64,000 nt of DNA. It comes from Rhynchopus sp. YZ270_cl-10 (Eukaryota). Shown piece after piece: positions 34,421 to 63,100 of the stretch (the first letter of the stretch is position 1; each line of letters begins with the position of its first letter). The stretch is taken from assembly GCA_964035575.1 (NCBI GenBank), contig OZ037834.1, forward strand, positions 744,001 through 808,000. Direction: 5' to 3'. The notes under the pieces are model-generated. The model made no database searches and was not told the DNA's origin. It was given only the letters and a program-made list of their open reading frames with translations. A program made the position numbers and the translations under genes.

Positions 34421-36808
34421 ATGTCGGGAAAGGGAGTGGCCGTGCCAGAGGAGGTGGTTAAATGTTTGGAGTCAAGTGAGAAGCTCAGCAAAGTGGTGCG
34501 TCAATGCAAGGACGAGGGGTTTCACCTGGAAGGCTACGACTTTTCCGGTGTGAACAACACAGTGCGAATTGTTCTCACCGGCCCGCAGTCTGCAGGGAAG
34601 TCCTCCTTGCTCGATGCAATGCTTGGCTTTCCATTCTCCCTGATCCTCAGCGGCACAGGCACGCGTCGCCCGATCCACCTCGTGTGCGAAACCAAGCCCG
34701 AGGGCGATGAGGAACTTTCAGTGGGGGGTACGAGTTACGCGTCACGCTCAGAGATGCAGGCGGCGGTGAAGGCTGCGAACGGGTCTGTGTTTTCGGAGGA
34801 GAAGCTCGACGTCCGCATCTGTTCCAAACATGTCGCGAACATTGTTGTGGTCGACCTGCCCGGGTTGAGATCTGTGGGAGATGCGGATGAATTGGAGCTG
34901 ATTAAAAAAATCACGAAAGACCACCTGGCGGAGGAGTCCAACTATATTGTGTGTGTGATTGGCGCACCAAATGATGCAGCTTCGTGGGGAGAATTGAACG
35001 ACACCATGGGTCCGTTCCTCAAGGCCAACGCAGGGTGGGAGAAGCGAGTCATAATCATCGCCAACAGGTTTAACCTGCGGATGAACGAGAACAAGACCCC
35101 TGCTCTGTGGAACGAGTATTTCCAGAATATGCGCAACTCCGGGACGGTGTTCGTGACAACCCTCGGGTACAGCAAGGACAAGTTATCTGAGGAAAGCTGG
35201 CAGGAGGACCTCGGCACTGTGCAGGAGAGGGACTCCAAGTACCTGAAGGATTTCATGGACAGCAACAACCTCTTGCACAACTCCGATTGGGACAAAGCAA
35301 ACTGCGAGATGATGGGTTTGGACAGAATTCTCGCCCGGATCAACAACCTGCTAAGGGAGGGAGCGCTCTCGAAGGCTCAGCACAACCTGAGGGATGCGAA
35401 CGAACTGACGAAGGACCTGAAAGCAAGCCAGCAGCGCATCCAGGACCAGCTGGCTGCAAACACGGAGGAGCAGATCGTATCTTTGATGGAGAGGTACGCG
35501 AAGGAGCTGGCCACGCACCTTCTTGCACTGCACGACAACAGAAGCATCTATGACAACTCGCGCTGCAAGAAGAACGATTTTGCGAGCTCGCCTCGCAAGA
35601 AGTACACCCCGAGCCACCTTCCTGAAAACCTCAAGTGCAGCTTTTGGGATGACATGGAGAAGGTTTCCTGCGACAGCAACATTCTGATTCCACACAAGCA
35701 GGCGGAGGAGAAGATGTCCTCACAAGAGTTGAAGGACAAGCTGAATATGAAGACAGCAGGGAAGGAAAATGCCCAGCGCGTCCTAATCATGGCACAGTGG
35801 TACATTCTGAGCGCGAAAGTGGAGAAAGTGTCTCGTGAAGACATCACAACGAAGGCGAGCGCAACGAACCAGCAGAGGAGACCAGACGTGAACAAACTGG
35901 TGTGTAGCGGTGCTCGGAACCGTGTGGCGGAGCTAGGGGATATTGTCATCCCGTGGATGGCAGAGATGCTGCACCAAATGGAGGTGACGTACTACAACTT
36001 CGTTGAGGGGCACCTGCTGTCAGAGGAAGGCAGTTTCGCAAGGATGGCGAACCCAGAAGCCGCGAGTTTCCACGAAGCCCTGAGGGACGCGATTTTCAAC
36101 ACCGTCTTGAGATCGAAGACAGGATCTTTTGCCGCTCGCTTCGACAAGGAGGTGAATAACTGTCGCAAGGTCATGTCCCTCGACGCTGTAGAACGGGAGA
36201 TGCTCGGCACGTTCATGGGGAACGGAAATAATGCAATCGTCAACCCGCAGGGATCAGCCAATTCTGGGCCGAATCAGCCATTGCCAGGATCTTTTGCAGA
36301 TGCTGGAACGAAGTTGCAGGCGTCGGGGATTGTCTTCGAAACCAACGAACGTCGTGCTGCCGTGCTTGCGCTGTTGCGCGCTGCGGACTCCAGCCAGGGC
36401 ATTGTGAACAACCAGATCAATGCGGATGACTGGGTGTTGGCGGGGAACTTGAGTGCCATCAGCAGACCTCTGTTCGAAGTCACGACTGATTACGTGGAAT
36501 ATATGTCCCAGCGACTGTACGAGTCCTCTGCCAGGTACGTGTGCAGTTGGATGGAGTTGGAGTACTTTGCGAATGTGATGCCGCTGTTCACAGGCGATGA
36601 TGACAACACGATCATAGGTGCGGTGAACAGCGCCGCCACTAAATTTATCCAAGCACATCGTGAACACCTGCTTCCCATGTTCGGTGTGCAAGAGGACAAA
36701 CTGCGCAACCAGCTGGAGCTCCTTGAATCAGCACTGGAGGCTGCCCGGCACCATTCCTCCGTGCAAACTACCCTGCTAGCTTCCGCAACGGCACACAGGG
36801 CTCGCTAA
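34421..36808 (+). CDS. Dynamin-related GTPase, copy 2 (795 aa)
   Basis: Paralog of 28922-31327 with the same G motifs and a divergent stalk-tip segment. Confidence 0.88.
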   Translation: MSGKGVAVPEEVVKCLESSEKLSKVVRQCKDEGFHLEGYDFSGVNNTVRIVLTGPQSAGKSSLLDAMLGFPFSLILSGTGTRRPIHLVCETKPEGDEELSVGGTSYASRSEMQAAVKAANGSVFSEEKLDVRICSKHVANIVVVDLPGLRSVGDADELELIKKITKDHLAEESNYIVCVIGAPNDAASWGELNDTMGPFLKANAGWEKRVIIIANRFNLRMNENKTPALWNEYFQNMRNSGTVFVTTLGYSKDKLSEESWQEDLGTVQERDSKYLKDFMDSNNLLHNSDWDKANCEMMGLDRILARINNLLREGALSKAQHNLRDANELTKDLKASQQRIQDQLAANTEEQIVSLMERYAKELATHLLALHDNRSIYDNSRCKKNDFASSPRKKYTPSHLPENLKCSFWDDMEKVSCDSNILIPHKQAEEKMSSQELKDKLNMKTAGKENAQRVLIMAQWYILSAKVEKVSREDITTKASATNQQRRPDVNKLVCSGARNRVAELGDIVIPWMAEMLHQMEVTYYNFVEGHLLSEEGSFARMANPEAASFHEALRDAIFNTVLRSKTGSFAARFDKEVNNCRKVMSLDAVEREMLGTFMGNGNNAIVNPQGSANSGPNQPLPGSFADAGTKLQASGIVFETNERRAAVLALLRAADSSQGIVNNQINADDWVLAGNLSAISRPLFEVTTDYVEYMSQRLYESSARYVCSWMELEYFANVMPLFTGDDDNTIIGAVNSAATKFIQAHREHLLPMFGVQEDKLRNQLELLESALEAARHHSSVQTTLLASATAHRAR

Positions 36809-37880
36809 AATACCGCCCAAAAACCCGCACGGTGGCTCTTTCTGGCAAAATTTTTCCACGCTATGTACAAATTCCTTAACAAATCTCGGAGATATTGTCT
36901 ACTTTATTTTGTGTAATCTCCAGAAGGAATTTCGAAAACGCGGCTCAACATTATTACACACAAGTGAGATAAAGTACTTTATCATCGCAACACTCGTTTT
37001 TACAGCAAAATCCGCAACATGCAACACGTTATATCCCCATGAGAGAAAATATCGTACAATGCTATTGCATTCTGAAAAGCGCACTTCACACAACTCGGGA
37101 GCTGTGGTTCCGAGTTGCATAAAATTAATTGGTGCACTCGCTGTGCTCGTGCACCAAAGCGGAACCATAGCTCCCTCGTGATGTAAAGTGCACCTTACAT
37201 CATGCAATGAATAGTTATTAGTTCTTGCCCTGTTTCCATCAATCCTTTTTTTAAGAGTGCACAACGCATTCGTTGTTTTGCAACGTATCTTGTAAAGTTT
37301 GTGAAGCGCGTGTGAGTTACCTTGGTGTACAAGGCGTGAAAGCGCGGTTTCGAAACGTTCAATTCTGGCAATTCTGTCAGACGATAAAAAATTATCAACT
37401 TCTCATTTTCTGAGATAAAAAAAACAAAAAAGAATGACATCGGTTACTGGGGGGGTTATTTCTAAAAACCTGTCCCTGTTTCTCATGTTTGGAAAATGAA
37501 AGTTGTCAATAAATTTGCATTGGGAGTTTAAAAAAACAGTGGAGATTGCACAACTGTGGCAACACAACCGAGGCAACTACACGACTCCGACATTTTGTTT
37601 TTTTGGCCCCCTTTTTTTTACCAGGGGGTTTCAACTGACAGAACAGCCGGTTTTCGACCACTTTTTTTTGTCACTTTTTGACGACTGGTCACAGCGTGCT
37701 CTACTCTAATGAGGGGTAGACGACGTCAGTGCTATGCACACGCGTCACACACACGCTTTTTCAAACACTGCTTGTTTTGTTCACCACATCTTCACAATAA
37801 AAAGCGGCCTTGCCTCCCCTCTGTTTTCCATCGCGACCCTGTTGTCCCAACACACCACACTCTCACAGACAACTTGGAAG

Positions 37881-40661
37881 ATGTCGGGAAAGGGAGTGGC
37901 CGTGCCAGAGGAGGTGGTTAAATGTTTGGAGTCAAGTGAGAAGCTCAGCAAAGTGGTGCGTCAATGCAAGGACGAGGGGTTTCACCTGGAAGGCTACGAC
38001 TTTTCCGGTGTGAACAACACAGTGCGAATTGTTCTCACCGGCCCGCAGTCTGCAGGGAAGTCCTCCTTGCTCGATGCAATGCTTGGCTTTCCATTCTCCC
38101 TGATCCTCAGCGGCACAGGCACGCGTCGCCCGATCCACCTCGTGTGCGAAACCAAGCCCGAGGGCGATGAGGAACTTTCAGTGGGGGGTACGAGTTACGC
38201 GTCACGCTCAGAGATGCAGGCGGCGGTGAAGGCTGCGAACGGGTCTGTGTTTTCGGAGGAGAAGCTCGACGTCCGCATCTGTTCCAAACATGTCGCGAAC
38301 ATTGTTGTGGTCGACCTGCCCGGGTTGAGATCTGTGGGAGATGCGGATGAATTGGAGCTGATTAAAAAAATCACGAAAGACCACCTGGCGGAGGAGTCCA
38401 ACTATATTGTGTGTGTGATTGGCGCACCAAATGATGCAGCTTCATGGGGAGAATTGAACGACACCATGGGTCCGTTCCTCAAGGCCAACGCAGGGTGGGA
38501 GAAGCGAGTCATAATCATCGCCAACAGGTTTAACCTGCGGATGAACGAGAACAAGACCCCTGCTCTGTGGAACGAGTATTTCCAGAATATGCGCAACTCC
38601 GGGACGGTGTTCGTGACAACCCTCGGGTACAGCAAGGACAAGTTATCTGAGGAAAGCTGGCAGGAGGACCTCGGCACTGTGCAGGAGAGGGACTCCAAGT
38701 ACCTGAAGGATTTCATGGACAGCAACAACCTCTTGCACAACTCCGATTGGGACAAAGCAAACTGCGAGATGATGGGTTTGGACAGAATTCTCGCCCGGAT
38801 CAACAACCTGCTAAGGGAGGGAGCGCTCTCGAAGGCTCAGCACAACCTGAGGGATGCGAACGAACTGACGAAGGACCTGAAAGCAAGCCAGCAGCGCATC
38901 CAGGACCAGCTGGCTGCAAACACGGAGGAGCAGATCATATCTTTGATGGAGAGGTACGCGAAGGAGCTGGCCACGCACCTTCTTGCACTGCACGACAGCA
39001 GAAGCATCGATGACAACTCGCGCTACACGAAGAACGAGTTCGCGAGCCCGCCTCGCAAGAAGTACACCCCGAGCCACCTTCCTGCAAACCTCAAGTGCAG
39101 CTTTTGGGATGACATGGAGAAGGTTTCCTGCGACAGCAACATTCTGATTCCACACAAGCAGGCGGAGGAGAAGATGTCCTCACGAGAGTTGAAGGACAGG
39201 CTGAATATGGAGACGGCAGGGAAGGAAAATGCAGAGCGCGTTCTAATCATGGCACAGTGGTACATTCTGAGCGCGAAAGTGGAGAAAGTGACTCGTGAAG
39301 ACATCTGGGCGAGCGCAACGAACCAGCAGAGGAGACCAGACGTGAACAAACTGGTGTGTAGCGGTGCTCGGAACCGTGTGGCGGAGCTAGGGGATATTGT
39401 CATCCCGTGGATGGCAGAGATGCTGCACCAAATGGAGGTGACGTACTACAACTTCGTTGAGGGGCACCTGCTGTCAGAGGAAGGCAGTTTCGCAAGGATG
39501 GCGAACCCAGAAGCCGCGAGTTTCCACGAAGCCCTGAGGGATGCGATTTTCAACACCGTCTTGAGGTCGAAGACAAAATCTTTTGCTGAGCGCTTCGGCA
39601 AGGAGGTGAATAACTGTCGCAAGTTCATGTCCCTCAACGCTGTAGAACGGGAGATGCTCGGCACGTTCATGGGGAACGGAAATAATGCAATCGTCATCCC
39701 GCAGGAACCAGCCAAGTATGAGCCGAGTGAGCAATTGCAAGCAGCGTTCAAAGATCCTGTTACGAAGTTGCAGGCGTCGGGGTCCGCAGTGCAGGAGGAG
39801 AAAAAGACTGACTTCGAAAACAACCAACGTCGCGCTGCCGTGCTTGCGCTGTTGCGCGTTGGGGACTCCAGCCAGACCATTGTGAACAAGCAGATCAATG
39901 CGGATGACTGGGTGTTGTCGGGGAACTTGAGTGCCATCAACAGAGCTCTGGTCGAAGTCACGACTGATTACGTGGAAAATGTGTCCCAGCGACTGTACGA
40001 GTCCTCTGCCAGGTACGTGTGCAGTTGGATGGAGTTGGAGTACTTTGCGAATGTGATGCCACTGTTCACAGAGGATAATGACAACACGATCATAGGTGCG
40101 GTGAACAGCGCCACCACCAAATTTATCCAAGGACATAATGGAAAACTGCTTTCCATGTTCGGTGTGCAAGAGGACAAACTGCGCAACCAGCTGGAGCTCC
40201 TCGAATCAGCACTGAAGGCTGCCCTGCACCATTCCTCTGTGCAAACTGCCCTGCTAGCTTCCGGAATGGCATACAAGGCTCAGCAACAGGAGGAGCTTCA
40301 GCGTGCCCTGCAGGTGAAGCGTAGATTGCAGGAGGAACTTGATCGTGTTAAGCTTCAGAAGGAGAAGGAGAAAAAGCAGCAAGAGGCCCTGAAGGAGAAG
40401 CGAAGACTGCAGGAGGAGCTTCAGAAGGAGAAGGAGAAAAAGAAGCAGCAGGAGCTTGAGCGTGTTCAGAAGCAGAAAAAGAAGCAGGAGCTTCAGCGTG
40501 CTCAGGAGGAGATTAATCGTGCCCAGAAGGAGGTGCACGATATCAAGAGTAAGAATCTTCCTACATTAAGACCCCCCGCGAAGAGAATACTGCAGGAGGA
40601 GCTTGCACGTGCTGTGAAGGCGCTTGAGCTTGCCCAGAAGGCGAAAAGGGACCTTGAGTGA
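37881..40661 (+). CDS. Dynamin-related GTPase, copy 3 (926 aa) with extra E/K/Q-rich coiled-coil tail
   Basis: Paralog whose frame continues past the stop position of copies 1 and 2 into a 126-aa charged tail (40281-40661). Confidence 0.88.
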   Translation: MSGKGVAVPEEVVKCLESSEKLSKVVRQCKDEGFHLEGYDFSGVNNTVRIVLTGPQSAGKSSLLDAMLGFPFSLILSGTGTRRPIHLVCETKPEGDEELSVGGTSYASRSEMQAAVKAANGSVFSEEKLDVRICSKHVANIVVVDLPGLRSVGDADELELIKKITKDHLAEESNYIVCVIGAPNDAASWGELNDTMGPFLKANAGWEKRVIIIANRFNLRMNENKTPALWNEYFQNMRNSGTVFVTTLGYSKDKLSEESWQEDLGTVQERDSKYLKDFMDSNNLLHNSDWDKANCEMMGLDRILARINNLLREGALSKAQHNLRDANELTKDLKASQQRIQDQLAANTEEQIISLMERYAKELATHLLALHDSRSIDDNSRYTKNEFASPPRKKYTPSHLPANLKCSFWDDMEKVSCDSNILIPHKQAEEKMSSRELKDRLNMETAGKENAERVLIMAQWYILSAKVEKVTREDIWASATNQQRRPDVNKLVCSGARNRVAELGDIVIPWMAEMLHQMEVTYYNFVEGHLLSEEGSFARMANPEAASFHEALRDAIFNTVLRSKTKSFAERFGKEVNNCRKFMSLNAVEREMLGTFMGNGNNAIVIPQEPAKYEPSEQLQAAFKDPVTKLQASGSAVQEEKKTDFENNQRRAAVLALLRVGDSSQTIVNKQINADDWVLSGNLSAINRALVEVTTDYVENVSQRLYESSARYVCSWMELEYFANVMPLFTEDNDNTIIGAVNSATTKFIQGHNGKLLSMFGVQEDKLRNQLELLESALKAALHHSSVQTALLASGMAYKAQQQEELQRALQVKRRLQEELDRVKLQKEKEKKQQEALKEKRRLQEELQKEKEKKKQQELERVQKQKKKQELQRAQEEINRAQKEVHDIKSKNLPTLRPPAKRILQEELARAVKALELAQKAKRDLE

Positions 40662-41080: not shown

Positions 41081-43563
41081 ATGGTTGTCGTAAATGGCGC
41101 GTCTCCCACCGCACCACCGATGGCTGAGTGCGGCAACACTGGATGCACGTCACCTGCAGAGCTGCAGTGTGGGTACTGCATCGATATGTACTTCTGCAGC
41201 AAGGATGCCTGCTTCGACGCTCTGCACCGTGAACCCGACCGTGCCGTGCACCGCAAGTCTGTCAGTGCGTATGGGACAACATCGATGTGTGCCCTGCATC
41301 GGGGCCAAGAGCTGCGCCTCATCTGTGAAGACCCTGCACGACGGAACACGTGGGACACACCACAACCGACATCCCGCAGTACATGGAGCGTGTGCGCGGA
41401 ACCCTCTGCACACATGAGGCAGATCTGAGGAAGCGACGCACTGCTGCAGAGGAGGAGTGCCGTGTGCTTGAGGGATTGGGTGTCAGGTGCAAAGACCATC
41501 TGCAGCAGACAGAGCGCGGGTACCTCTTTATGGCGGAGGGCTGGACACGCAGCCACATTGAGAGCGAGGAGGAGGTGTCGAGGAAGCTCCACACACAGCT
41601 GTACAGTATTGCAGGTGACGTGTCTGCACTGAAGGCGTTCAGCGCACATGCGGACGACGTGGTTGCTACGTGCAAGGATGTGTGCCAGCTTGGGCCTGAT
41701 GTCGCACAGCGCATGATCACACAGTCGCAGGAGATCATGCACACCATAGCAAGCATCCCACCGAACATGAACCGCCACCGCCTTGTGGGTGTTGTCTCCC
41801 CACATGCAGAGCTTTCCGTGACATTGCCTGAGTGTGTTGCAAGCCTGCACGACGACCTTGCCCAGAGTTTGCGAGTTGGTGTGTCTCTGCCTGTGGAGGG
41901 CTTTGATGGCGAGATGCACAAGGTTGAGGTGGGTGAGGAGGACACAGCCGCAGACTTGCATCGGAAGGTGGCGTCTGCAGTGGGGTTGCCTGAAGAGGTG
42001 GTGCACGTGAGCTACAAGGGCGAAGCGGTTGTGGAGGGAGAGGACATGTGGCCAGCGCCGCTGCGTGCAGACAGGATCGTGGTGACGAAGACAACGAAGT
42101 ACGAAGCCACCACTGCACTGGAGGCATTGGGTGTGCCAGCGCACGCAGAGTCGCTGCAGCGTGTGGATGATGCAAAGGTGGCCTGCTTGCTTCTGCAGGC
42201 GGAGGTTGCGACTGCAATTCCCGACAGGTTCCTGTCCGGTGCAATATTCACAACACTCGACCTGACCGGCACGGGCTTGAGCTTTGTTACGACTGTTGGT
42301 GAGAGCTTTCTTCGCAGCTGTCCGAACCTGACAACAGCCAACATCTCAGGCTTGACTGGCGTGACTGCGATTGGGATGCACTTCCTGAGTGGGTGCTCGT
42401 ATCTGACAGAGCTTGTCGCTGACTTGAGCCACGTCACCGCCATACCAGACTTCTTTCTCTACCAGTGCACGGCACTGACGAACGTCGACGTCACCAGTTG
42501 GAACAGCGTGACCTCGATTGGGAACAGCTTCTGTCGCAGGTGCGCATCGTTGGAAAGCTTCGACCTGACTGGGTTCGTGAATGTCACTGCCATTGAGGAT
42601 GGTTTCCTGCAGGAGTGTATGTCGCTGAGACGCCTCGACCTCTCTTGCATGAGCAGTCTCGCCGAGGTTGGTGGTGGCTTTCTGAAGGACTGCCGGACAC
42701 TGACAGACGTGGACGTGTCTGGTCTGCCCAGTCTGGGTGTGATCGGGAACAGCTTCCTCGATGGCTGTTCGGCACTGAAAACACTCAACCTATGTGGCTT
42801 CGAAGGTGTGACCGCAATTGGCACTCACTTCGCTTACAATTGCACACTGCTGCAAACAGTGAGCATTTCAGGCTTGAACAGCGTGGCTGCGATTGGGAAG
42901 TGCTGCCTTGCCGGGTGCACGATGCTGAAGACACTTACGATCACTGGCTTGACAGCGCTGCCTCGTATCGAAGACTCCTTCGCTTCAAACTGTGTGTCGT
43001 TGACGTCACTGAACATTGCTGGTTTGCGCAGTGTGACCGTTCTTGGGGACGACTTCCTGTCCGGGTGCCCGAATTTACGAGGACACGACTTCACTGCCTT
43101 GTCAGGCGTCACTGCAGTTGGGGCGAACTGCCTTGAGGGGTGTGCGGACTTGGGACCGTTGAAGCAGCTTCAGGAACAGGAAGCGAAAAAGAAGCAGGTG
43201 GAGAAGAAGCAACAGGAGGAGCTTGAGCGTGTACAGAAGCAGAAGAAACTTGAGTGTGCCCCGAAGGAGAAGAAGAAGCAGGAGGAGTTGCAGGAGAAGC
43301 AGCTGTACCTTCAGAAGCAGCGGGAGCGGAAACTGGCAATGAAGCAGGCAAACTTTCAGATGTGGGTGCGCATGGCGGCGCGCCAGTGCGCCAGGAAGGA
43401 GACTCAGTTGACACCTCAGGAAGAGGAGAAGAACAAGAAGGAGGAGCAGCAGCAGCGGCACAAACAGGAACAGAAGCGTAAGCAGAGGAAGCACCAAGAA
43501 CGCAAGCACAAAGAACGGAGCCGGGATCCGCAGGAATTTTGCAAATGGGGACAGACCAAATAA
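41081..43563 (+). pseudogene. B-box/coiled-coil/Ubl/LRR copy 4, frameshifted by a 34-bp deletion in B-box 2 (or an N-truncated isoform from ATG 41383)
   Basis: TGTGGAAAAGCCTTGCTCTGCACGTCCTGCGTCA, present in copies 1-3, is missing at 41338/41339 (CA microhomology). The downstream frame stays open to TAA 43563. Confidence 0.75.
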
Positions 43564-50319: not shown

Positions 50320-53300
50320 ATGAAGCTGTTTTTTGTTCTATTTTTTTGCTTGATTTGGTGCGACGCGAAAGAGGCTCAGGACGAGGAAGATCCCACACAC
50401 ACACGCAACAGATGGACACCACGCGCCGCATGGCACGGCCTCAGCCGCACACTTGATGCAATCATCGCTCGGCGCGGCCGCTCTGGGGAGTACAGTGGCG
50501 CGCAGAAGGAGACCCTTCTCGAAGACGCTGAGAAAATTGTACGCGACTTATTGATTGCTGAACGGAGCCTTCGTTACGACCCGGCTGCACCATCCACACC
50601 AAAGGAAAACCCACAGGACACACTAAAAGGCATTCAAAAAAGCCTGAACAATGCGCTACAACAACTCAAAGGGTTCGGGTTGGAGCCAAAGGGAGGGTCC
50701 CCTTCTGATGATGGGATATTCGATGCACTGTCTGGCCTGCTAAAAAATGGGGGCAAAATGGAGTTTAAAATGGATTTTGAGGAAGGTGCGGAAGGGGAAT
50801 TACAACAGAAGCTTTTAGGCAGTCTTGGAAAGCTGGGGGGATTGGTAGGGATGTTAGGTGAGTCGTCTGATCCTTCAGAGACAATAATAAATACAGAAAA
50901 CTACCCAAAAGATGGCTGGGAGGAGGCCCCAAACCTACCAGCAGACCAGCTTCCATCCGACGACGATTTGGATGAAGAAGACGATCTCTCTGAAGCTAAC
51001 ACTGATGAGGATGAAGACGGATATTTCTCCGATCCATTTAAACGAGAGTCTAATAAAGCGAATAAGCAAAAATGGAGAGCGGCAGAAAAGGAAGAAGACA
51101 AAAAGGCGGCGGAAGAAGCAAAACGGAAGAAAACCGAGCAAAAAAAGAAGGATACAAAACCGGCGCCACCAGGGGATTATGATTACAACGCGCCCGATGA
51201 AGAGAGCTTTGTGAACTATGAGAAGGGGCGCGATCTGAAGCTTTCCGCGCATTTTAACAAACAAAAAAGCGACAAAAAGCTTCGCCGCGGGATGAGTCAT
51301 TTATACTACGGAAAAGACAGCATTTCCTTCGCATGGGGGGTACCATGGTCACTTGCCAACAACCCTACTAAGAAACGACGATGGGATTACATGGAAGACC
51401 GCCTTCTATATGTCGAAGACTTCCCACATCTCAGACGAATGTTCGAAGGCCACGCCACCTCCTTCTTCGACCCAGAGAGTGATACCAAAGACGATAAAGT
51501 ACGAAAAGCGCGAAAAGCGGTAAAACAGCTCGTCGCTGACGTCAAATCCAAGCGGAAGCTACCTACTCTGGAGGACGAGGAGGAGGAGGAGGAGGAGGGC
51601 GAGAACGCCCCTATACATACAGAAACCAAAGAAACGCTGTTTGTCCGTCTTTCTCTCCCATTCGGCGCGTTCTTCGAGGGGCACCGCTATTTTGTAGCAA
51701 ATAGCAGTACAAAAAATCGCTCAGAAAATCTTTCCAATCCATCATGCAATGATGAACCCCCTTCCGATGACACCCCACCTACCTGTTCTGGACCGCCTTT
51801 GGAATCTCCTGTTGAGGAGGAGGAGGGGGAGGGGGAAAATGCCTCATTTTCCCCTGAACACCCCAAATTTCATTATGTAGGTCGAATTAGTGGAGAAAAA
51901 TACAGCTATACCGGAGAATGTGCTGGTGTGGTCGAAGGAGGGGGGTCTGCAAGGAAGGCTGGTGGGGATTCTCAAAAGGCGCCTTTGGGGAGAACTTCGC
52001 AGTATTTTGCCGATCTTGGTGTTCAGGAGGATTTTGCGACCAATAATGCACCTTATGTCAGCCCTGAAGGGAATGGTATTGTTACTACCACACATGTAAC
52101 GTACTCTGGTTCATTTCATCGTGGGGTACCTCATGGGTTTGGGACTTTAACGATAAATGCGGATTCACCAAACGGTTGCACCTACAATGGTGCCTTTCAA
52201 AGAGGATTCCTTCATGGAGAAGGTAGGCTGGACTGTGGAGTGGGTAACACCTTTTCAGGGAGTTTCGCATGGGATCGCTTTGGGAATGGTGTTCTAAAAA
52301 GCGGGGCCTGCTCTGTAAAAGGAGATTTTATGAGAGAGAGATATGCAGTCGCGCAGTGTCGAACCTCAGATGGGGTAATCCCGCTTCAAACCAAGATTTT
52401 AAAAGGACCGCATTTTGAGGGTTATGTTACTCCAAGGTTTTCGTTGCAGCATGCGGCACCGATGCTACAATTTGATGGGAAGGTGAGTAAGGCGGCGATA
52501 GAAGCTTCAGAACGACCGAAAGGGGTTTGTACCATAACCTATAGTAGACTGCGCTATGAAGGGGAATGTAATGGAGATAATGCAACGGGGGCAGGGTACG
52601 TGGAGGTTTTTTCTGAAGTGAAAGGGAAAAAGGAAGCGGTGATCTCGCTTTCCGCGACGTTTCGATCCATGGGGTTGGTCCCGGGGCCGACCGTAGGGGT
52701 GGTCTTTCATTGCAGTTTCTCGGGCACCACAACGCGCACCCTGCAGCTGAACCCACTCACCTCACTGCTGCCAAACACAGATCTCATTTCTTCAAAACCG
52801 TTTCGCGCCTGGCATGCTAGGGGTACCCTCTCATGTTCTAAAAACCTTCCGTTTGTGGAGTACGAAGGCACATTAAAAGGGGGGCGCCCAAATGGGAAAG
52901 GAAGCATGACAAGGCTGTGGGATAAAAGCGAGGATTTGGCAGGGATTTTGGAGGTGATTGAGCATGCTGTGGTAGAGTGTGGTGGGGTGGGGAGGATGGA
53001 TGAGGTGTACGACGTGGTGTTGTTCGGAGAGTTCGCAGATGGGAAGCCGCATGGCTTGGTCGCAGTCGCAGCGCGTGGTGCTGATGGGAAGCCTGCGTTA
53101 TCAGGAATGGTTATTAGGGTTACCTTCTTGCACGGTCTCGCCTCTGGTGCTGGTGTGGTGACCGCAGAGTCAGGTGCCGCTCGATGGCGTGCAACCTTCG
53201 TCTCAGGCCGCCCCTCCGAGGAAGCGCCGCTCAACGATTTGGAATCTCCAGCCCCCGTGGAAATATTTTTTTGGTATCTCGGACGGATGTGCGACTTTGT

Positions 53301-53418
53301 GCTCTTCAGCTATTTGGTGGATGAAGAAAGGGAGGTCAGCATTCTTGCAGTGTTGATGGTCGTCACGGCGCTCACAGCATACCTCACAATGTACATCCGA
53401 GCTAGGGGGATGGTGTAA
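50320..53418 (+). CDS. MORN-repeat protein with signal peptide and C-terminal TM helix (1032 aa)
   Basis: Signal peptide MKLFFVLFFCLIWCDA. MORN-like YSGSFHRGVPHGFGTL, YNGAFQRGFLHGEGRL, YEGTLKGGRPNGKGSM, FGEFADGKPHG. TM segment ILAVLMVVTALTAYLTMYI followed by RARG. Confidence 0.8.
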   Translation: MKLFFVLFFCLIWCDAKEAQDEEDPTHTRNRWTPRAAWHGLSRTLDAIIARRGRSGEYSGAQKETLLEDAEKIVRDLLIAERSLRYDPAAPSTPKENPQDTLKGIQKSLNNALQQLKGFGLEPKGGSPSDDGIFDALSGLLKNGGKMEFKMDFEEGAEGELQQKLLGSLGKLGGLVGMLGESSDPSETIINTENYPKDGWEEAPNLPADQLPSDDDLDEEDDLSEANTDEDEDGYFSDPFKRESNKANKQKWRAAEKEEDKKAAEEAKRKKTEQKKKDTKPAPPGDYDYNAPDEESFVNYEKGRDLKLSAHFNKQKSDKKLRRGMSHLYYGKDSISFAWGVPWSLANNPTKKRRWDYMEDRLLYVEDFPHLRRMFEGHATSFFDPESDTKDDKVRKARKAVKQLVADVKSKRKLPTLEDEEEEEEEGENAPIHTETKETLFVRLSLPFGAFFEGHRYFVANSSTKNRSENLSNPSCNDEPPSDDTPPTCSGPPLESPVEEEEGEGENASFSPEHPKFHYVGRISGEKYSYTGECAGVVEGGGSARKAGGDSQKAPLGRTSQYFADLGVQEDFATNNAPYVSPEGNGIVTTTHVTYSGSFHRGVPHGFGTLTINADSPNGCTYNGAFQRGFLHGEGRLDCGVGNTFSGSFAWDRFGNGVLKSGACSVKGDFMRERYAVAQCRTSDGVIPLQTKILKGPHFEGYVTPRFSLQHAAPMLQFDGKVSKAAIEASERPKGVCTITYSRLRYEGECNGDNATGAGYVEVFSEVKGKKEAVISLSATFRSMGLVPGPTVGVVFHCSFSGTTTRTLQLNPLTSLLPNTDLISSKPFRAWHARGTLSCSKNLPFVEYEGTLKGGRPNGKGSMTRLWDKSEDLAGILEVIEHAVVECGGVGRMDEVYDVVLFGEFADGKPHGLVAVAARGADGKPALSGMVIRVTFLHGLASGAGVVTAESGAARWRATFVSGRPSEEAPLNDLESPAPVEIFFWYLGRMCDFVLFSYLVDEEREVSILAVLMVVTALTAYLTMYIRARGMV

Positions 53419-53621: not shown

Positions 53622-54077
53622 ATGAGCCTCAAATGTCGCAGTGTTTACCGCCACTGGGGTAAGATCCACACGAGGTGGCAAGACCAGGACACCTTCGGGC
53701 ATGTGAACAACGTAGAGTACTACAGCTACGTGGACAGCACGGTGTGCGCCTTCCTGCGAGGCGGCGACGTCTTGCGTGCTGCGACCATGAGCCCCGGGGC
53801 ACCCCGCCCCTTCGTGGTCGAGTCTGCGTGCAAATACCTGCAGCCCGTGGGGTTTCCCGCCACACTCGATGTGGGCATTCTGGTCACCTCCTGCGGGCGC
53901 AGCAGCTGTACCTACAAGGCAGGGCTGTTCAAGGAAGGGGAAAGTGACCCTGCAGCTATCGCCACCTTTGTGCACGTCTGGACCGACGCTGAGACACAAC
54001 GTCCTACACAAATACCAGAAGCAGTACGCACTGCCTACGAAGGGCTGATTCATGAAGGCAGTTTGGAGGGTATCTGA
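53622..54077 (+). CDS. Hotdog-fold acyl-CoA thioesterase (4HBT/YbgC family, 151 aa)
   Basis: RWQDQDTFGHVNNVEYYSYVD matches the D-x-x-G-H-V-N-N-x-x-Y signature. Also FVVESACKYLQPVGFP, GRSSCTY, FVHVW. Confidence 0.9.
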   Translation: MSLKCRSVYRHWGKIHTRWQDQDTFGHVNNVEYYSYVDSTVCAFLRGGDVLRAATMSPGAPRPFVVESACKYLQPVGFPATLDVGILVTSCGRSSCTYKAGLFKEGESDPAAIATFVHVWTDAETQRPTQIPEAVRTAYEGLIHEGSLEGI

Positions 54078-54137: not shown

Positions 54138-54510
54138 CTTTTCTTTTTTTATATTGAACACCTGCGTTGAATGCTGGCACATATACTATCTCGGTGTGGT
54201 GATGTTGCAGAGCATTGGATGAGTGAACGACGAACTACGTGACACTTTCCGCAAAAAAAAAAAAAGTGTGCATAAAACAAACAAACAAAAACAACATCTC
54301 TTCCTTTCCTTGAAGGTATTATTTCCTCTCCCTCTCCACTCTTAGAATCTAGAAATCGAACGTACTCCCCTCCCTCCCTCTTCCTCTCTCTTTCTCTCCT
54401 CTTCTTCAACAAAGTCCCAACCCCCTTCCTCTCTCTCCCTCCCTCCCCCCAAAGAACCCTCTCAGGAAAAAAACACCCCCCTCCAGCGCCCCTTTTTTTG
54501 TTATTTCATA

Positions 54511-57500
54511 ATGAGTGGGGACAAAGCACCTACATGGCAGACCGCTGCTGTGGCAGCAGGTAGCGCCGCTGCGGTTGCTGCCGCGCTTGCGAAGATGCAC
54601 GACCAGTACGTCGTGAGCCGGCCGATGGCGAGTATCGAGACTGCCATTGAGGCCTTCCGCAATGGAATTCCCTGCGTTGTCATGGATGATGAGGACCGTG
54701 AGAACGAAGGAGACATCATCGTCCCTGCCGGCGCGCTAACAGAGGAGATGTCCACCATCATGATCAACCACACTACTGGGATCCTCTGCGCTCCGATGAC
54801 CGAAGAACGCGCCAGCATGCTTGGACTCGGCCCTATGCTTGCAAACAACCAGGACCCCAAGGGAACTGCCTTCACCGTCACCACCGATTTGAAACCCACT
54901 GTCCCAAAGGATTCTGGTCTCATCCCGGATCTTGCTGACGCTGATGGTGAGACCGGGTTGACCACTGGAGTTTCCGCATACGACAGAATGATCACCTTCA
55001 AAGCATTGGCGCACCCTAAGGCTAGGGCAACAGACTTTGGCCGTCCTGGACACATCTTCCCTCTGAGGGCGAAGCGTGGCGGAGTACCAGAGAGGAGAGG
55101 ACACACCGAGGCATCGGTGGATCTCTGCCGTCTGGCAAACTGTGTCCCAGTCGGTGCCATCGGAGAGCTTGTCAACGAAACCGGAGAGATGAAGCGGCTC
55201 GATGACTGCAAGCGTTTTGGCTACAAATTCGGCTACCCCTGCATCACGATCGACGCCCTGGTGAACTATCTCTACAGAAAGCCCCTCGCCATGCCCACAG
55301 CGAACGTCGCCGTCAACCTCGCGGCCACCTGCACGATCCCGGTGACCCGCGAGGGCCGCTTCCTTGGCATCTGGGATATGTCGTGCTACGTCGAGGCGGG
55401 ACGGCATGAGCATGTGGTCCTCTCCCTGGGGGACATCTCCGCGTCTGATGCAGTTCCGGTTCGCATCCACTCTGAGTGCTTGACAGGAGACCTGATCGGA
55501 AGCATGCGGTGTGACTGTGGTGAGCAGCTCAACGCCGCCTTCCGTCACATCGCCGACAAAGGAGTCGGTGTCATCATCTACATGACCGGGCACGAAGGCC
55601 GTGGTATTGGTCTGATCAACAAGATGCACGCCTACCAGCTGCAGTCCAACGAAGGATACGACACCTACCGCGCGAACAGAGAGCTCGGCTTCCAGGACGA
55701 CATGAGATCCTTCGATGCATGCGCGGAAATCATCAAGCAGATGGGCATGCAGTCGAAGACGGTCCAGCTCCTAACAAACAGTCCACTCAAGGTCCGCGGC
55801 ATGGCTGCCCTCAAGGGAAACGTGAAGATCGAGGTTGTCCCCCTGCTGTGCAAGCACAATGAGTACAACCAACGCTACCTGACCGACAAGAGGAACCACG
55901 AGGCGCGTCTCCGTGAAGGCGGTCTTGCATCCCGTCCGGAGAACATCAGAACGTCGCTCCGTCTGTCGGACCGTGCCCACATCTCCTTGGTCCCCAAGCT
56001 TCGTGTTGCCATCATCCAGACCGTGTGGTTCCACACCCCGCTCAAAGCCCTGAAGAAGCAGGTCATCCGCCACCTGAACGAGGCTGGTGTCACCTCCGAG
56101 AACATCTGCACCATCGAGGTGGCCGGGGCACAGGATATCCCATTCGCTGCCCGCACCGTGGCGTTGACAGGAAAGGTTGACGCCGTGCTCTGCCTTGGTA
56201 TTACCATTCAAGGGGAGGTGAAGCAGGCGTTCAGCTGTCTCTCCTCTGCGGTGTCTCACGGTGTGAACGCAGTGCAGACGGAGACCGGAGTGCCAACCCT
56301 CTTCGGCGTCATCGCATGCAAGCAGCAGCAGCAGGCGATCGACCGCTGCAGTGAAGGGTCCGAGCTTGCGTACTCGCTTGCCCTCTCCACAATCCAGGTT
56401 GCCACCGAGCGTCACATCTTCAGCCCAGCGAAGGCAGGCGCCCTTCCCTCCTTTTCGCAGGACGGCGCGACCTCGCCTCTGGGGTCCAAGCCTAAGGTGT
56501 TGTCTTCTTCGACCGCATCGAACGAAACCCAGGTGCAGGGTCTGGCGGACCTCATTGTGCACCCCTCTGCCGCAGAAATGCCCAACCTCAAGATTGTGGT
56601 TGTCGCTGCAGCATGGCAGGGACGCTACGTGGACTCGGTGGTGAATGGGCTGACCGAGGAGCTCATCTCCCATGGGGTGGACGGAAACAACATTGGAGTG
56701 GTGCGTGTCCCCACTATCTTCAACATTCCGCATGCCGCTGCGGTGGCCGCGGCCAGCGGGGTCGATGCAGTGGTGACCTGCGGTTTCCTGGTGAAGGACG
56801 AAACGTCTCATTTCGACTACGTCGCTCAGGCGCATGCGATCGGAACCCTGCACACCCAGCTGCGTTGTACCATCCCCATCGTGTCTGGGGTGCTTCTCAC
56901 GAACACCGAGGAGATGCTGACACAACGTGCCCCTGATGTGCCGCACCCGCTTGCTGCGTCTGTGTTGCATCAGATTGCCTTTGCCAGAGAGGTGAGCGGT
57001 GTCAAGAAGTCTCCCGCAACGCTCTTCATGTTCGGATCGCAGCCGGGCGCTGAGGAGGCAACGTTGGTTGCTGAGCCTGCCTCGATGCTGAAGGTTCTGA
57101 CCGCCCCGACTGCCGTGCAGGCGAAGAGCATCCGCGTCGGCATTGTGCGCACCGCATGGAATGAGAGCTTCGTGGAGGAGATGGCCGCCGGCATCACGAC
57201 GTACCTCACGGACGCTGGGGTCGCCTCTGTGAACATTGTGGAGCGTGTCGTGCCTGGATCCTACGAGCTTCCTACTGGAGCTCGCATCACCGCTGACGCC
57301 GAAGCTGTCGACGTTGTCGTCTGCCTTGGAGTTCTCCTGAAGGGAGACACCAAGCATTTTGAGTACATCTGTGAGTCCACCTCTGATGCTCTTCTCAAGA
57401 CTGAGGCGGCGACAGAGGTGCCCATCGTATGGGGAGTGCTGACGTGCCAGACGATTGATCAGGCAAAGGAGCGTGCCGTGAGTGCGGAGATGCATGCTGA

Positions 57501-60186
57501 ATGGGGGGCAAGCGCACTGCATCTGGCGCTTCTGCGTGATCAGTCGCCGGCAGCAAAGAAGGGGGCCAAGGCAAGGATGACCCCAGTGCAGACACGTGAG
57601 ATCCCTCCAACGAGCTTGAGGAAGGCGCTGGTAGGGGAGTTGGTGAAGGATATCCCAAGAACGTTGAAGGCGCCGGCGGCAGACGTGGCGGAGAGCATGA
57701 GCATTGCGGTGGTGGCGACGTCGAACGAGGAGTACGCCTTGGTGAGGCAGATGGTGGACGGCATCAGCGCGGTGTTCAGTGCAGCAGGCCTCCCGGAGGT
57801 CAACGTTGTCACCCAATGGGTCCCGACGTCCTTCGACCTCCCCCACGCGGTGAACTGCATTCTCGAGAGCACCCCGGTGCTTGCGGTGCTGGCGGTAGGT
57901 ATGTCACATATTAAACAACCTGACCTTCTTGCAATACGGCTTTATCGGTTTTGACATCCCGAAGGAAATTGCAGTTTTTTTTAGCGGAAGCTCATCCCTC
58001 GGGGTGTCATAACAACTAATATGCAACCCAACATTTTTTTTTATCCACGCGCGTGAAGCTTTATTTTCCTCGCCCACCCAAAAGTACGTGGAGGGGTGTG
58101 AAAATAAAATTTTTATTTTCACCCTGTGAAAATAAAAATTTTATTTTCACCGTTTTTTTTCACCCGTCTTACTGGGGGGGGCCGAATAAACGAGGTAATT
58201 CGAATAAAGCACGTACGTCGAATAAAGCACGCATTTGAAAAATGGGTTTTTTGCTTTTTTTTCCGTCGAATAAAGCACGTACGTGTTTTATTCGACTTTT
58301 TGAACTTTTCCTGTGTTGTAACAAGGTAGTTCGTATTTTGTGAAAATTTAAGTCGCTGAAATTTTGTCCATTTTTCCGTATATCCCCCACCACAAGCCGG
58401 GATTGGCTCGGAAATGCAACAAAATCACCTCTTGGGCGAAAAAAAATCGAAAAAAAAATTGCGACTGGAAAAAGTTTCCAAAAAGTTCGAAAAGGCGAAT
58501 AAAGCACGTACGTGCTTTATTCGCCTTTTCGAACTTTTTTTTTTTTTTAAACCTCAGGATCTGAAGTGTAGGGACGCCTAATAAAACACGTACGTGCTTT
58601 ATTCGACCCCCCCCAGTAAGCCCCCAAACACCCCCAAACTCACCCTATTTTTTTCGAGTTTTTTTTTTCCCCAGGGTATCTGGACTGGGGTGGGGGGACG
58701 GGGCGTGCATGGTGGTAGCTACAAACTTGTTGGAGTAGCCCTCGAGCTGTGTCAGCGGAGGTAATATATTTTAGGGTAAATTGCGATAGCACGTACAAAA
58801 AGTGTGCGTGTTATCGCGAACAAAAACGTACGTGTTTTCCCCAGGTACCCAGTACCAGTACCCCCAATGACATAACGAAGTATCGCTTGAAAGTATCGTT
58901 CAATAACCTTGGGTGTGCAGGTGAAGTAGGACACACAAGGTATATCAAACGATAAATCAATCAGATAAACGTTACATCATTGGAAAATTGTTGGCACCGC
59001 CCCCCTGTCTTCGTATTTAGTACGTCGACAGGCCAAACAGCGTTGGGCTCAGAAGAAGCGGTGCAAGACACTGGAGATCCACACTACAGGTCTCACACGA
59101 CACTTGGGCGGGCTCGGAAAATAAAGCTTCACACTTATGGATAAAATTATGTCTTGGAGTAGAAAATAAGCGTTTTTTTCACCTCGTTGGTGTTTTCAAC
59201 CCTCGTGACTTTAATTCCCTCGCTTCGCTCGTGAATTAAAGTAACTCGGGTTGAAAACACCAACTCGGTGAAAAAAACGACTTATTTTCACTCCAATAAA
59301 TAGCTATTTTTCAAATCACCCCACCCCCACCGCACCTCACACTCACCCAAACAGGAGTCCTCATCGAGGAGGCAAACGACAACTTCGACACCGCCTGCGA
59401 GGCCTCCGCACACGGCCTTCAAGAGGTATGCCTCCCTCCCCCCCATCCACCCCCACCCCCACACTCTAGAATTTCCTCCTTCCCACCCCACCCCCCTTCC
59501 CTCTTACCTATTCAAATTCAAAAAAAAAATTCAAAAAACAGGCCTCCCTCAAGCACAACGTCCCTGTGCTCTTCGGGGTTCTGACCTGCCAGACCAGAGA
59601 GCAGGCAAGGGAGCGTGCCGAGGCGGGGAGTGAGCTGCACTACTCGCTCTCGATGTCTGCCCTGCATATGGCCTGCATGCGCATGCAGCTGGGTCTCCGC
59701 GGGAAGAACGTGGCGGCCAAGAGAGAGCTCGGCGTCGTCGCGACAGTGCCACCTGCCTCTCTGCGCAAGCTCCGTGTCGCGCTTGTCCGCACCAGCTGGA
59801 ATGAGAACAACGTGCTCGCAGTCGTCGAAGCCCTCAGAGGCAAGCTCCTCGACGCTGGTGTCCGCGTTGGAAACATCACAGAGGAGGTGGTCCCCGGAAG
59901 CCACGAGCTTCCCTTCACCGCGCAAAAGATTGTGAGCGCCAAGGAGGCTGACGTTGTCTGTCTCCTCGGCTCCCTGGTCAAGGGGGACGTGGAGAACTAC
60001 GACTACATGGCGGCAGCAACGATCAAGAGCTTCCTTGCCGTGCAGAGGAACCAGACCGCCCCTGTGGTGTGGGGGGTCCGTTGTGTCGAGGAGGGAGACG
60101 CGTTGGCGCTGAACGTCGAAGACCAGGCCGCTCTTCTGTCGACCAGGATTGTTAAGGCATCCAGAGTCCACGCTGAGTTGAACTGA
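54511..60186 (+). CDS. ribBA-ribH: Riboflavin-biosynthesis multienzyme: DHBP synthase (RibB) + GTP cyclohydrolase II (RibA) + five tandem lumazine synthase (RibH) domains; join(54511..57898,59355..59425,59542..60186), 1367 aa
   Basis: RibB motifs DDEDRENEGD, TTGVSAYDR, RPGHIFPL, RRGHTEA. RibA motifs RIHSECLTGD..SMRCDC, EGRGIGL, DMRSF, LLTNSPLK. RibH motifs such as RTAWNE, VPGSYELP, GVLLKGDTKHFEYI, PVLFGVLTC..QARERA. Splicing at two GTATG..CAG introns keeps the frame and restores the missing RibH segment GVLIEEANDNFDTACEASAHGLQE. Confidence 0.92.
58172..58616. mobile_element. Tc1/mariner-type MITE (TA TSD) with internal AATAAAGCACGTACG motifs
   Basis: TA|CTGGGGGGGGCCGAATAAA ... TTTATTCGACCCCCCCCAG|TA. 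Similar termini occur at ~35-44 and ~37447. Confidence 0.85.
59154..59296. repeat. Bulged palindrome with TC/TC internal loops and TCGCTTCGCTC apex
   Basis: Arms GTTGGTGTTTTCAACCC / GGGTTGAAAACACCAAC, ACTTTAATTC / GAATTAAAGT and GAAAATAAG / CTTATTTTC. Confidence 0.9.
59426..59541 (+). other. Intron 2 of the riboflavin gene (phase 0, 116 bp)
   Basis: GAG|GTATGC donor and ACAG|GCC acceptor, in frame with ORF 59566-60186. Confidence 0.88.
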
Positions 60187-63100
60187 AAAAAAAAAAAAAA
60201 TGTGAAGAGTGAGGAAAGAACAACGACGTTGAAAGACACATCGCTTATTTGATCGTTTTTTTTCTCTCTTTTTGGAAGATTTGACAGAATAAGTGTGTTG
60301 TTTATTCTTATTTTTTCGTTTTTTTTTTGTTTTTTTTTTTGCTATTCGTTCAATAAAGGAGAGTATGTGTGGGTACATTTTTTTGTTTTTTGTGTACCAA
60401 AAAAAGGAGGAGAGGTATGCACCTCGCTAGCTAGGACAAATCTCTCGGGATGGGTTTTTCTTTTTTAAAAAAAAAATTCCAAGGTGTACCTAAAGTACTT
60501 ACTGGGGGTGGGGGGAGGCGAACGAAAGAGATATCTCGACACCTCTTGTCATTTGCCCTCCCCCAGCCCCTCCCCCAGCCCCTGTCTTCGGTTCATTTTG
60601 TAAAAAGTGCGTTTTTTTTTCCCTTCTTTTTTCTTTTGCGGCAATGTTTGTGATTTTTTTCTTTTTTTTTGTGAATTTGACCAGGGAAACATGAGGGTTT
60701 AGACATGAAGTTGGGGGTGTTTTTTATCCGAATTGACGAAGCTAGGCATAAGGAATAAGGCATAAGGATAAAGACCCCCCCACCTTTAGTCTAACACGCT
60801 ATTTTGAAAAGTTTTTAAAAAAAAACTTCTTTTTGACGTGGTGTTGCAAATACCATTCGTGTGTACCCCTACACACCATCCCGAGATGGGAAAGGGGTTT
60901 TTTTTTTCTCGCACTGTTTCTTTTGTTACACTTGCTTTTTATGGTTCAAACAGAAGAAGAAAACAGGATCCATAGCAGGGCTAAACAGAGGTATAGGTTC
61001 GACAAAAAAAAATCATCCCATCTTTTTTGGACAAAGGATATATTGAGCAATACCCCTTCGTGGGAAAACCGTGTGTCAAAAAATATGAAGTGCTCGGGGG
61101 GGGGGGTTCGGTAACCCCACCGCGGGAGAATATGCGCCTCGCCGATGTAACGGTGAAGCGTTTTTTTTTTTTTGTGCACTTTTTCAAACACTTCTCTTTT
61201 TTTTTTAGTATTTTGCTCTCGCCGTCTTCCCCCTATTTTTTCCTCCTTCACAACCCCACCTTGGTGACTAAGCCTTTCATGACTCAAGTCACCTTTTTGG
61301 ATTTCAAGTAATTTTTTTTGTTTTTTTTGTTGTGTTTGAGCCCCCCCGTGTTGAACACTGTTTTGTTCATTTTTTTTTGATTTTTTTTTTTTTTTTTGAT
61401 AAATTGTTGGAGTGTAGTTGCGTTCTTGGTTGTGTTGCGCTGTGCACATCTCCACCTTACAGTTTGTCTAGTATCTTTCCTTTTTGAGTATGCCGTTTAT
61501 TTAAAGGTGACTAAGCATGAGAGGCTTGGGCTCATCTTTAAAAAAAAAATTTTTCCGTGTTTTTTTTGTGTCCGTACCAGTTTGGTGTGTATTGTGTGTA
61601 TGTTTGAAAAAGCAGGGTTCCGCGGTAGGTCCTTAGAAACGGAACAGACACACTGTTGGTGCTTTTCGGAAGTCGGTCAACGACCTGTCAGCGACGTGTC
61701 ACGACCTGTCGGTGACCTGTCAATATCGGCCCCTCCCGGAGGCACCAACTGTTTATATTTCTGTCTCCTCTCTACGCTTCGGAGTGTTGAGGCCGGCAAC
61801 AGATGGCTTGCTCTGTTTTTTTGTATCGGGTTCAAAACAAAACAAAAAAATAAAAAACAAAACAAAATATCCCCGATACAAATCTCATAGTAAAAGGAAG
61901 AGAGGAAACCCCCTGTTTGGTCAAATCCCATCTTTTCGGTATTGAAAAAAAAGTGAAAAAAAAATATCTCGAGTCATTTTCCCCCGATTTGTGATGTTTT
62001 TTTTGATAAAATTGTTGGAGTAGTGTTGCCTCGGTTGTGTTGCCACAGTTGTGCAAATCTCCATTTTTCCGAAAGTTCACATGCTTTTTGTTGTTGTTGT
62101 TGTTGTTTTGTTGTTATGTTTTTTTTCTCCCCTATTCCTTCGGCATCACATACGGAGGCTTGCATTTAGCGCTTTCGCGATGTCGTTTAGTTCAGGTGGT
62201 CCTTATTATTTTATTTTATTTTTTGACCAAATTATAATTACAAAAAAGGTAAGTAAATACATTGTTCTTGTTGTTGCTTTTCATCCGGATCGCTGGCATT
62301 GTACAGTACATTATACGGAACGCCTGCATCAACTCTCCACCCACTCCCCCAAAAAAAAGTTTGTGGTCACTCTTCCCAGCCTTTTCTCTTTGAAAACATG
62401 ATGTGTCTGTGTGTGTTGTTTGATAACTAATAGGGGTAAATTCTTGCGCAGAATATGGCCCCAATGTGTGTGTATATGCAACGTGAGGCATATTCTCATC
62501 AGTTTTTTTACTCTCTTCCTTAGCGCGATTGTATATCGATGATTGTTTTCTTCCCCTCCCCCCAGAGTCCAAAGCCCTCTCATCTTCCTCCTCCTCCTCC
62601 TCATCTCCCACGCTTCTTCAGGGGGAGATTATTATTTTTTTTGTAAGGTGACTAAGCACGAGAGAAAAAGATTGATGAATAACCAATGTTCAAAACATTA
62701 AGTAATCTAATCAGACTAAGCACGAGAGGCTTAGGATCATCTTATAAACTTTTCCTTTTTTTTTTTTTCTCTTCCATGCGTCCGCCGATGAACGGTGAGA
62801 CGTCTGCGCTTTTTTCAACTTCTCTTTTCTCCCCTTCCTCCCCTCCACCCACCCCATCACACGACACCTCATGTCAACGTGACATGTGAGAAAGGGCATG
62901 TTGCTTTTCTGGCAATGTAACATGGCATGTGGCAGATGTCATAATGACATGTGCACATGTCATCGTTTTTTTTTTACCATGTCATGTGGCATGTGGCGTT
63001 CGTGCACATGGAGCGTTAAAGTGCGGTAACCTTTCCCTCCCAAAGAAGGTGATTTGCACTGTCAACTTCACTTTGATTTTTTTTTGTTATCAAGAGCAGA

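Follow-up and report, generated by a model that had tools for sequence, protein, structure and literature searches.

A diplonemid RibB-RibA fusion carrying five diverged lumazine synthase domains in one chain

Lumazine synthase (LS, RibH), which makes lumazine by condensing ARAPD with DHBP, is the standard example of a homo-oligomeric enzyme and is widely employed as a scaffold for protein cages. The Type I pentameric enzymes, among them the fungal RIB4 type (2jfb, 1ejb, 4kq6) and the LS of B. subtilis (1rvv), are homo-oligomers with equivalent sites. Each site is built by two adjacent subunits, one contributing residues 22 and 80-88 and the other Arg127, Lys135 and Glu138; replacing the Arg by an uncharged residue inactivates the enzyme, and most other changes are weak in effect (PMC2935281, section 3.3). 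Phe22, His88 and Arg127 are named as conserved catalytic residues of LS in the excerpted text of PMC12871164.

Two further enzymes of the pathway, RibB and RibA, are often found joined to each other or to LS. The best solved match to the RibB-RibA part of the gene described here is 4i14, which we take to be the bifunctional RibBA of M. tuberculosis; the match is full-length (E 2.4e-89) and the catalytic motifs are common to both, but bifunctional RibBA lacks the approximately 870 further residues with five LS domains seen here. Also related are trifunctional RibB-RibA-RibH fusions, represented by Balamuthia KAL6072659, Dracoamoeba and Orpheovirus ORPV_666, which share the domain order RibB, RibA, LS; for ORPV_666, homologs in Indivirus and Acanthamoeba are named in the part of PMC5786535 available to us. 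The nearest Atlas cluster is also of this RibB-RibA-LS(x1) type (612 aa, score 0.89). These proteins have one LS domain with canonical residues (H88 in 15/16 and R127 in 15/16, the latter compared to 24/24 for stand-alone LS) and would need five chains per ring, whereas the gene here encodes a single chain that starts with a hydrophobic N-terminal segment and contains five unequal LS domains. Compared to Type I LS it shares the fold, and in its third LS domain the substrate-face residues, but would form a covalent hetero-five with non-equivalent sites.

The passage from homomer to pseudo-symmetric single chain, with a repeat number equal to the stoichiometry and subsequent loss of sites, is described for beta-propellers and inverted-repeat transporters in those portions of the literature available to us. 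Four-repeat cation channels and the AAA rings of dynein and midasin represent the same kind of duplication and fusion. What differs here is that the object is a five-fold metabolic enzyme ring for which the unfused and the x1-fused states are still extant. In the literature searched, from which subscription journals were out of scope, no description of a multi-domain LS was found, in agreement with the sequence-only reading of this DNA, which knew of no natural five-domain single-chain LS. The words "fusion" and "fused" do not occur in the excerpted text of a 2026 pathway review (PMC13151069). What appears to be new is the array of five and the inequality of its domains; duplication-fusion of a homomer and the tethering of RibH to RibBA are known already.

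The window is a stretch of 64,000 nucleotides from Rhynchopus sp. YZ270_cl-10 (contig OZ037834.1). Its features are collected in Table 1. Computed joining of three exons gives an open reading frame of 4104 nt that encodes 1367 aa plus stop with no internal stop, and reads, from N to C terminus, RibB, RibA and five LS domains (D1 to D5).

Table 1. Features of the window, with positions counted from its first letter
Feature	Positions	Strand	Remarks
Four near-identical B-box + BspA-type LRR genes	8505-10766, 18326-20740, 23600-25993, 41383-43563	+	one scanned; C-terminal tails differ
Three tandem dynamin-family GTPase genes	28775-31327, 34421-36808, 37734-40661	+	795-975 aa; one scanned
MORN-repeat protein	50323-53418	+	about 1030 aa; likely signal peptide, C-terminal hydrophobic segment
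4HBT-type thioesterase	53622-54077	+	151 aa; Pfam 4HBT_2; directly upstream of the fusion gene
Exon 1	54511-57898	+	N-terminal segment, RibB, RibA, LS D1-D3, first half of D4
Ala/Val-rich N-terminal helix, aa 8-36	54532-54618	+	hydropathy; helix in predicted model
RibB, DHBP synthase domain	54634-55269	+	Pfam PF00926, 228 bits
RibA, GTP cyclohydrolase II domain	55360-55896	+	Pfam PF00925 (GTP_cyclohydro2), 164 bits
LS D1	56002-56403	+	substrate face largely lost (E58, T86, H88 positions); F/Y113, R127 kept
LS D2	56590-56976	+	substrate face partly kept, variable; R127 kept, 113 = Ser
LS D3	57133-57528	+	W22, G55, E58, T86, H88 in 7/7; R127 in just 3/7
LS D4	57700-59673	+	both introns inside; substrate face lost; F113, R127 kept
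Intron 1	57899-59354	+	GT..AG, 1456 nt; full of repeated palindromic elements
Exon 2	59355-59425	+	71 nt; mid-part of LS D4
Intron 2	59426-59541	+	GT..AG, 116 nt
Exon 3	59542-60186	+	D4 end, linker, LS D5, stop
LS D5	59773-60162	+	W22, G55 kept; H88 to Asn in 7/7; R127 absent in 7/7

The gene model of the sequence-only reading, in which two canonical introns are removed to leave one frame of 1367 aa, is borne out. Exons have a GC content of 0.60-0.62 against 0.42 and 0.50 for the two introns. In alignment, both junctions are uninterrupted sequence in three transcriptome-derived homologs and in a protein of D. papillatum, and two unspliced genomic calls (P0006 and P0007) diverge from the alignment at the site of intron 1, P0006 also ending at the site of intron 2. 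Short-read contigs are identical to the exons over 54736-58063 and 59283-60301, which serves as an assembly check only, as the window may itself derive from these runs. An artefact of assembly or of the splicing proposed could be argued from the fact that the exact junctions here are supported by homologs and not by RNA of this organism. It is almost certainly the wrong explanation: the domains are just 20-35% identical to one another, the contigs just mentioned match the exons without differences, and the same joined sequence stands in transcript-derived homologs, by which the part of the objection that concerns architecture is already refuted. As judged by sequence comparison, the gene architecture is real, conserved and apparently undescribed.

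Each of the five LS domains is recognizable by profile search. In exon pieces, Pfam model DMRL_synthase (PF00885; cut-off 26.7 bits) scores 97.3 bits for D1, 98.4 for D2, 124.4 for D3 and 74.3 for D5. D4 appears as two halves: the one upstream of intron 1 covers profile positions 2-63 (26.8 bits) and the one downstream of intron 2 covers 92-136 (34.9 bits). The middle exon, of 23 aa, has no Pfam match alone and falls within the gap of the D4 profile. A local LS profile applied to the spliced product finds all five, at 135, 110, 187, 118 and 92 bits. The count of five RibH-fold domains put forward from the sequence thus stands (four whole domains and two halves by Pfam, five by the local profile), and the boundaries given then agree with the domain cores found here. 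Core-to-core gaps are 62, 52, 57 and 33 aa in the window protein, within an overall range of 32-64 aa. Domains of one chain are 20-35% identical, compared to 56-68% at the same position across species, with D4 (68% mean identity) and D1 (63%) the most conserved. In the icosahedral capsid type of LS, twelve pentamers make up a shell; the nearest solved sequences to D3 are fungal pentameric LS enzymes.

A search with the LS region yielded seven proteins among 7993 candidates, namely the window's own and six more. Four are full-length diplonemid homologs, from the transcriptomes of Diplonema japonicum, D. ambulator and Flectonema neradi and from D. papillatum (KAJ9467862.1); all four have RibB-RibA followed by exactly five DMRL_synthase stretches, and the window protein is 56-59% identical to them, which identifies the window as diplonemid DNA. 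The remaining two, called from genomic sequence without splicing, are interrupted at intron 1; separate last-exon proteins that carry the missing part of D4 together with D5 lie on contigs of equal length to theirs. A single-domain LS profile run against 1.84 billion representatives gave 7444 matches; among the best 150 of the 7444, which were examined, the only five-domain protein beyond the window's pieces was P0144 from Papus ankaliazontas, a RibB-RibA-LSx5 protein. An array of strongly degenerate domains might have scored too low to be among those 150. We take Papus to be a prokinetoplastid. Among 297 proteins collected, none had three or more than five LS matches, and the three with four are intron-truncated calls. 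Freely varying repeat numbers, which would have spoken against a ring count, were not found: the number is five in 5/5 full-length relatives identified.

Elsewhere, a true tandem of two diverged LS domains occurs in the fungus Smittium culicis (P0263 and P0290), a number that cannot tile a ring of five evenly. P0145, whose 1.8-kb contig encodes a pair of almost identical LS halves, was set aside as a likely assembly duplicate, and P0050, P0061, P0089, P0199 and P0244 were rejected as multi-domain proteins since they are single LS domains split by inserts. A metagenome scan for LS arrays returned 47 pattern matches that reduced to one locus with an ordinary single bacterial-type ribH, and a phage collection held separate rib genes only.

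A quick tree of 72 rows places diplonemid LS domains in five positional clades of five rows each (SH-aLRT 95-100). The domains fall among fusion-type LS domains, with the backbone lacking resolution; a starred clade that unites 22 stand-alone LS with the two Smittium domains does not include them. Because each of the five positions forms its own clade, the array appears to be old and fixed.

Active-site residues were numbered by reference to P0058, whose alignment with 1rvv is gap-free. Counting the five positions W22, G55, E58, T86 and H88 over all members, D3 keeps 35/35, D2 23/35, D5 21/35, D1 12/35 and D4 3/25. Arg127 shows a different distribution, being present in D1 (7/7), D2 (7/7), D4 (5/5), only some D3 (3/7) and no D5 (0/7). 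Some substitutions are fixed, H88 being Asn in every D5 (7/7) and W22 being Asp or Asn in every D4 (5/5). By this alignment the full substrate-binding face is kept by D3 only, D4 has lost its face and keeps its Arg, and D5 has lost its Arg. D3 presumably cannot rely on copies of D3, since just 3/7 have Arg127 and an uncharged residue there inactivates. In any ring order, at least one interface, that completed by D5, would lack the Arg, and the face of D4 would be without every one of its residues. That the five domains are not equivalent as active units, judged by the site residues retained, went unnoticed in the sequence-only reading.

The LS region of the D. japonicum homolog (886 aa) was modelled by AlphaFold2 with 11 sequences, giving pLDDT 84.4 and pTM 0.88; the model represents the homolog rather than the window's chain, comes from a program trained with LS pentamers, and was judged by its confidence scores and by structural matching. 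It supports the packing of the homolog's five LS domains as one compact body, and the pTM would be too high for five independent beads. Solved LS entries match the model with a target TM of 0.76-0.89 by Foldseek; the top five Foldseek rows, RecA fusion chains with TM 0.11-0.17 and rmsd of about 24, were discarded as repeat-length noise. The best structural match is B. subtilis LS 1rvv (Z 19.8, rmsd 1.9, 153/154 aligned, model range 249-533), whose core aligns on D3 and whose first residues align on a strand of D2. LS N-termini contribute a strand to the neighbouring subunit, according to the portion of PMC2935281 available, so D2 and D3 appear as pentamer neighbours. The earlier proposal that one chain folds into a five-domain ring is upheld as to a compact single body in the model; the closing of the ring is a prediction.

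The direction of the ring depends on how interfaces are scored. With yes/no scoring the reverse order matches 5/5 interfaces and the forward order 3/5, and four of 24 rings score 5. With graded scoring of Arg only, reverse comes third and forward eighth among the 24; once position 113 is included, forward takes rank 3-4 and reverse rank 12-15. Conservation does not fix the direction. As a matter of judgement we favour the forward order 1-2-3-4-5, because it sets D3, which has the best substrate face, against D4, which has the best partner face, and the dead D4 against the dead D5.

The RibB and RibA parts carry their catalytic motifs in the diplonemids. The RibB motifs DDEDRENEGD and RRGHTE are present in 7/7 diplonemid proteins, and RibB has an insertion of about 19 aa relative to solved RibB. 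The three-Cys motif of RibA is seen in the alignment, and DxRxFD is present in 7/7; in this enzyme the three cysteines bind zinc and the Arg is catalytic. Ahead of RibB, the best 17-aa hydropathy of the N-terminal segment is 1.0-2.3 in six of the seven diplonemid proteins and 1.6 in Papus, compared to no more than 0.6 in 15 single-LS fusions, most of which have no such extension. The helix is possibly a membrane anchor or a targeting signal.

Taken together, the gene encodes a single chain of RibB, RibA and five diverged LS domains, and we think it quite probable that the latter form, as predicted, a pseudo-five-fold ring within the chain with likely one to three working sites. RibA and RibB would open the two branches of the pathway. 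They would sit on a flexible linker, likely dimerising between chains to give a dimer of rings, with the enzyme perhaps held at a membrane by its N-terminal helix. Short diffusion, not a tunnel, would bring DHBP to the ring, and the ring would condense it, at one to three sites, with a pyrimidine made by RibD and a phosphatase presumably encoded elsewhere. D3 would offer the one canonical substrate face and receive its phosphate-binding Arg from a neighbour, D4 in a forward ring or D2 in a reverse one. Some interfaces would be structural only, as D4's own face and D5's Arg are gone. In the available portion of PMC13151069, RibA and RibB are dimers, and kcat is 0.037 per s for RibB and 0.024 per s for LS; at these rates about two LS sites per RibB site should suffice. 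With dimeric RibA and RibB, an x1 fusion would have to reconcile two-fold with five-fold contacts, in assemblies of at least ten chains, where an x5 chain would need a dimer only.

The sequence-only reading went further and suggested that RibH tethered one to one to RibBA could channel DHBP. The tether is present but not new, single-LS fusions being common in amoebae and reported in giant viruses. A megasynthase with RibB and RibA held rigidly against the ring, handing DHBP straight to an LS site, would fit with DHBP being the LS substrate (PMC13151069, in the text available) and with a RibA-D1 linker conserved in sequence and length in 7/7 diplonemid proteins. The predicted structure does not favour it. 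The exon-1 product of the window (RibB-RibA-D1-D3-half D4, 22 sequences) was modelled by AlphaFold2 with pLDDT 82.4 and pTM 0.57, about the LS share of the chain (about 640 of 1147 residues), as a single chain without D5, half of D4 or dimer partners; linker residues 471-476 fall below pLDDT 50, the model does not dock RibBA against the LS domains, and RibA stands between RibB and the ring. Channelling is unlikely on these grounds. That the rings are assembled between chains, by swapping or as D3 pentamers decorated by the remaining domains, so that five is not a ring count, is very unlikely. The gaps between cores are long enough for swapping and tandem LS pairs do exist in Smittium culicis, but the constant count of five, the lack of an own Arg in four of seven D3 domains and the single-chain pTM all point the other way.

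A rather unlikely reading, which nevertheless accounts for some of the same observations, gives new jobs to the changed interfaces, either as regulatory pockets for riboflavin, lumazine or FMN or as a riboflavin synthase like the archaeal pentameric paralog. The substitutions in D1, D4 and D5 are fixed and not random, D1 and D4 rank highest in conservation, and archaeal riboflavin synthase has the LS fold (2b98, Z 14.0 against the model). The conservation of D1 and D4 is also explained by partner faces and packing, however, and LS entries outscore 2b98 (Z 19.8 vs 14.0) in a comparison that tested mainly D3 and D5. Diplonemid transcriptomes, moreover, hold all enzymes of the riboflavin pathway according to the available part of PMC7052976, where genes are not named. 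We would likewise give a low probability to a bolder version, in which the five interfaces have split roles, one or two making lumazine and the others serving as flavin pockets or for another reaction, in a membrane-anchored natural single-chain ring ancestral to diplonemids and kinetoplastids whose Papus form is a non-catalytic scaffold. The preferred reading remains the chain with one to three working sites described above.

Two further features escaped the sequence-only reading: the layout extends beyond diplonemids to Papus, and the hydrophobic N-terminal segment is shared by Papus and 6/7 diplonemid proteins while absent from the 15 single-LS fusions. In a tree of the RibBA part (33 rows, with no rows from euglenids or other kinetoplastids), Papus is sister to the seven diplonemid proteins with support of 99/95. 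Its LS domains have long branches in the 72-row tree and correspond only weakly to diplonemid domains by position, the best normalised match lying on the diagonal for 4/5 and the order by identity ranking 3 of 120. Most canonical LS residues are lost in all five Papus domains, RibA of P0144 lacks about 14 residues after its EGRG motif, and the acidic motif of its RibB is altered. The Papus ring may not be an active LS, to go by these losses, and P0144 may be a pseudo-enzyme or a paralog. The simplest reading of the trees and shared segment is a single origin of LSx5 before the split of diplonemids and kinetoplastids; with positional matching weak, Papus may also have grown to five independently.

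Fusions of the RibB-RibA-LS(x1) kind are common: of 26 proteins selected, 13 have only these three families and a single LS. The array likely arose from such a fusion. An ancestral gene of this type would have had its LS part multiplied to five before diplonemids and Papus split; each ring position would then have gained its own sequence, and no domain would have retained more than the face required of it. As to cause, an advantage in oligomer matching or kcat is no likelier than neutral duplication with later entrenchment, because many x1 fusions show that a mismatch of two-fold and five-fold symmetry is tolerable. With stand-alone, x1 and x5 states all extant, the family is a test case for how a homomer becomes an asymmetric ring that drops sites, and a template for pentamers whose five positions are engineered separately. 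The layout would also represent a shared derived character of diplonemids and a prokinetoplastid. Genome records that say RibBA hide the RibH step and call for correction; the architecture can be read from the public D. papillatum protein KAJ9467862.1, which is named only RibBA.

Several minor observations concern the surroundings of the gene. The palindromic repeats of intron 1 have a summed contig depth of 1e5-5e5, compared to 70-1250 on exons, and the contigs of three runs align mostly to these repeats. In contigs from four runs, 58169 is connected directly to 58617; the 447 nt left out, flanked by 30-nt inverted arms (58168-58197 and 58591-58620), are probably a MITE-like element inserted within another repeat. 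Upstream of the ATG, a long pyrimidine tract in 54300-54490 is followed by CAG (54463-54465 and 54484-54486), as expected for a spliced-leader trans-splicing acceptor, which it would represent. The neighbouring thioesterase shows no sign of a link to riboflavin. The dynamin-family GTPase genes sit between copies of the LRR gene, a pairing that, speculatively, recalls an immunity-type gene cluster. Among other proteins collected, P0166 (1262 aa) comprises almost the entire pathway, with riboflavin synthase, the deaminase and reductase of RibD, RibB, RibA and LS in a single chain, and P0299, P0300 and P0308 have similar domain sets.
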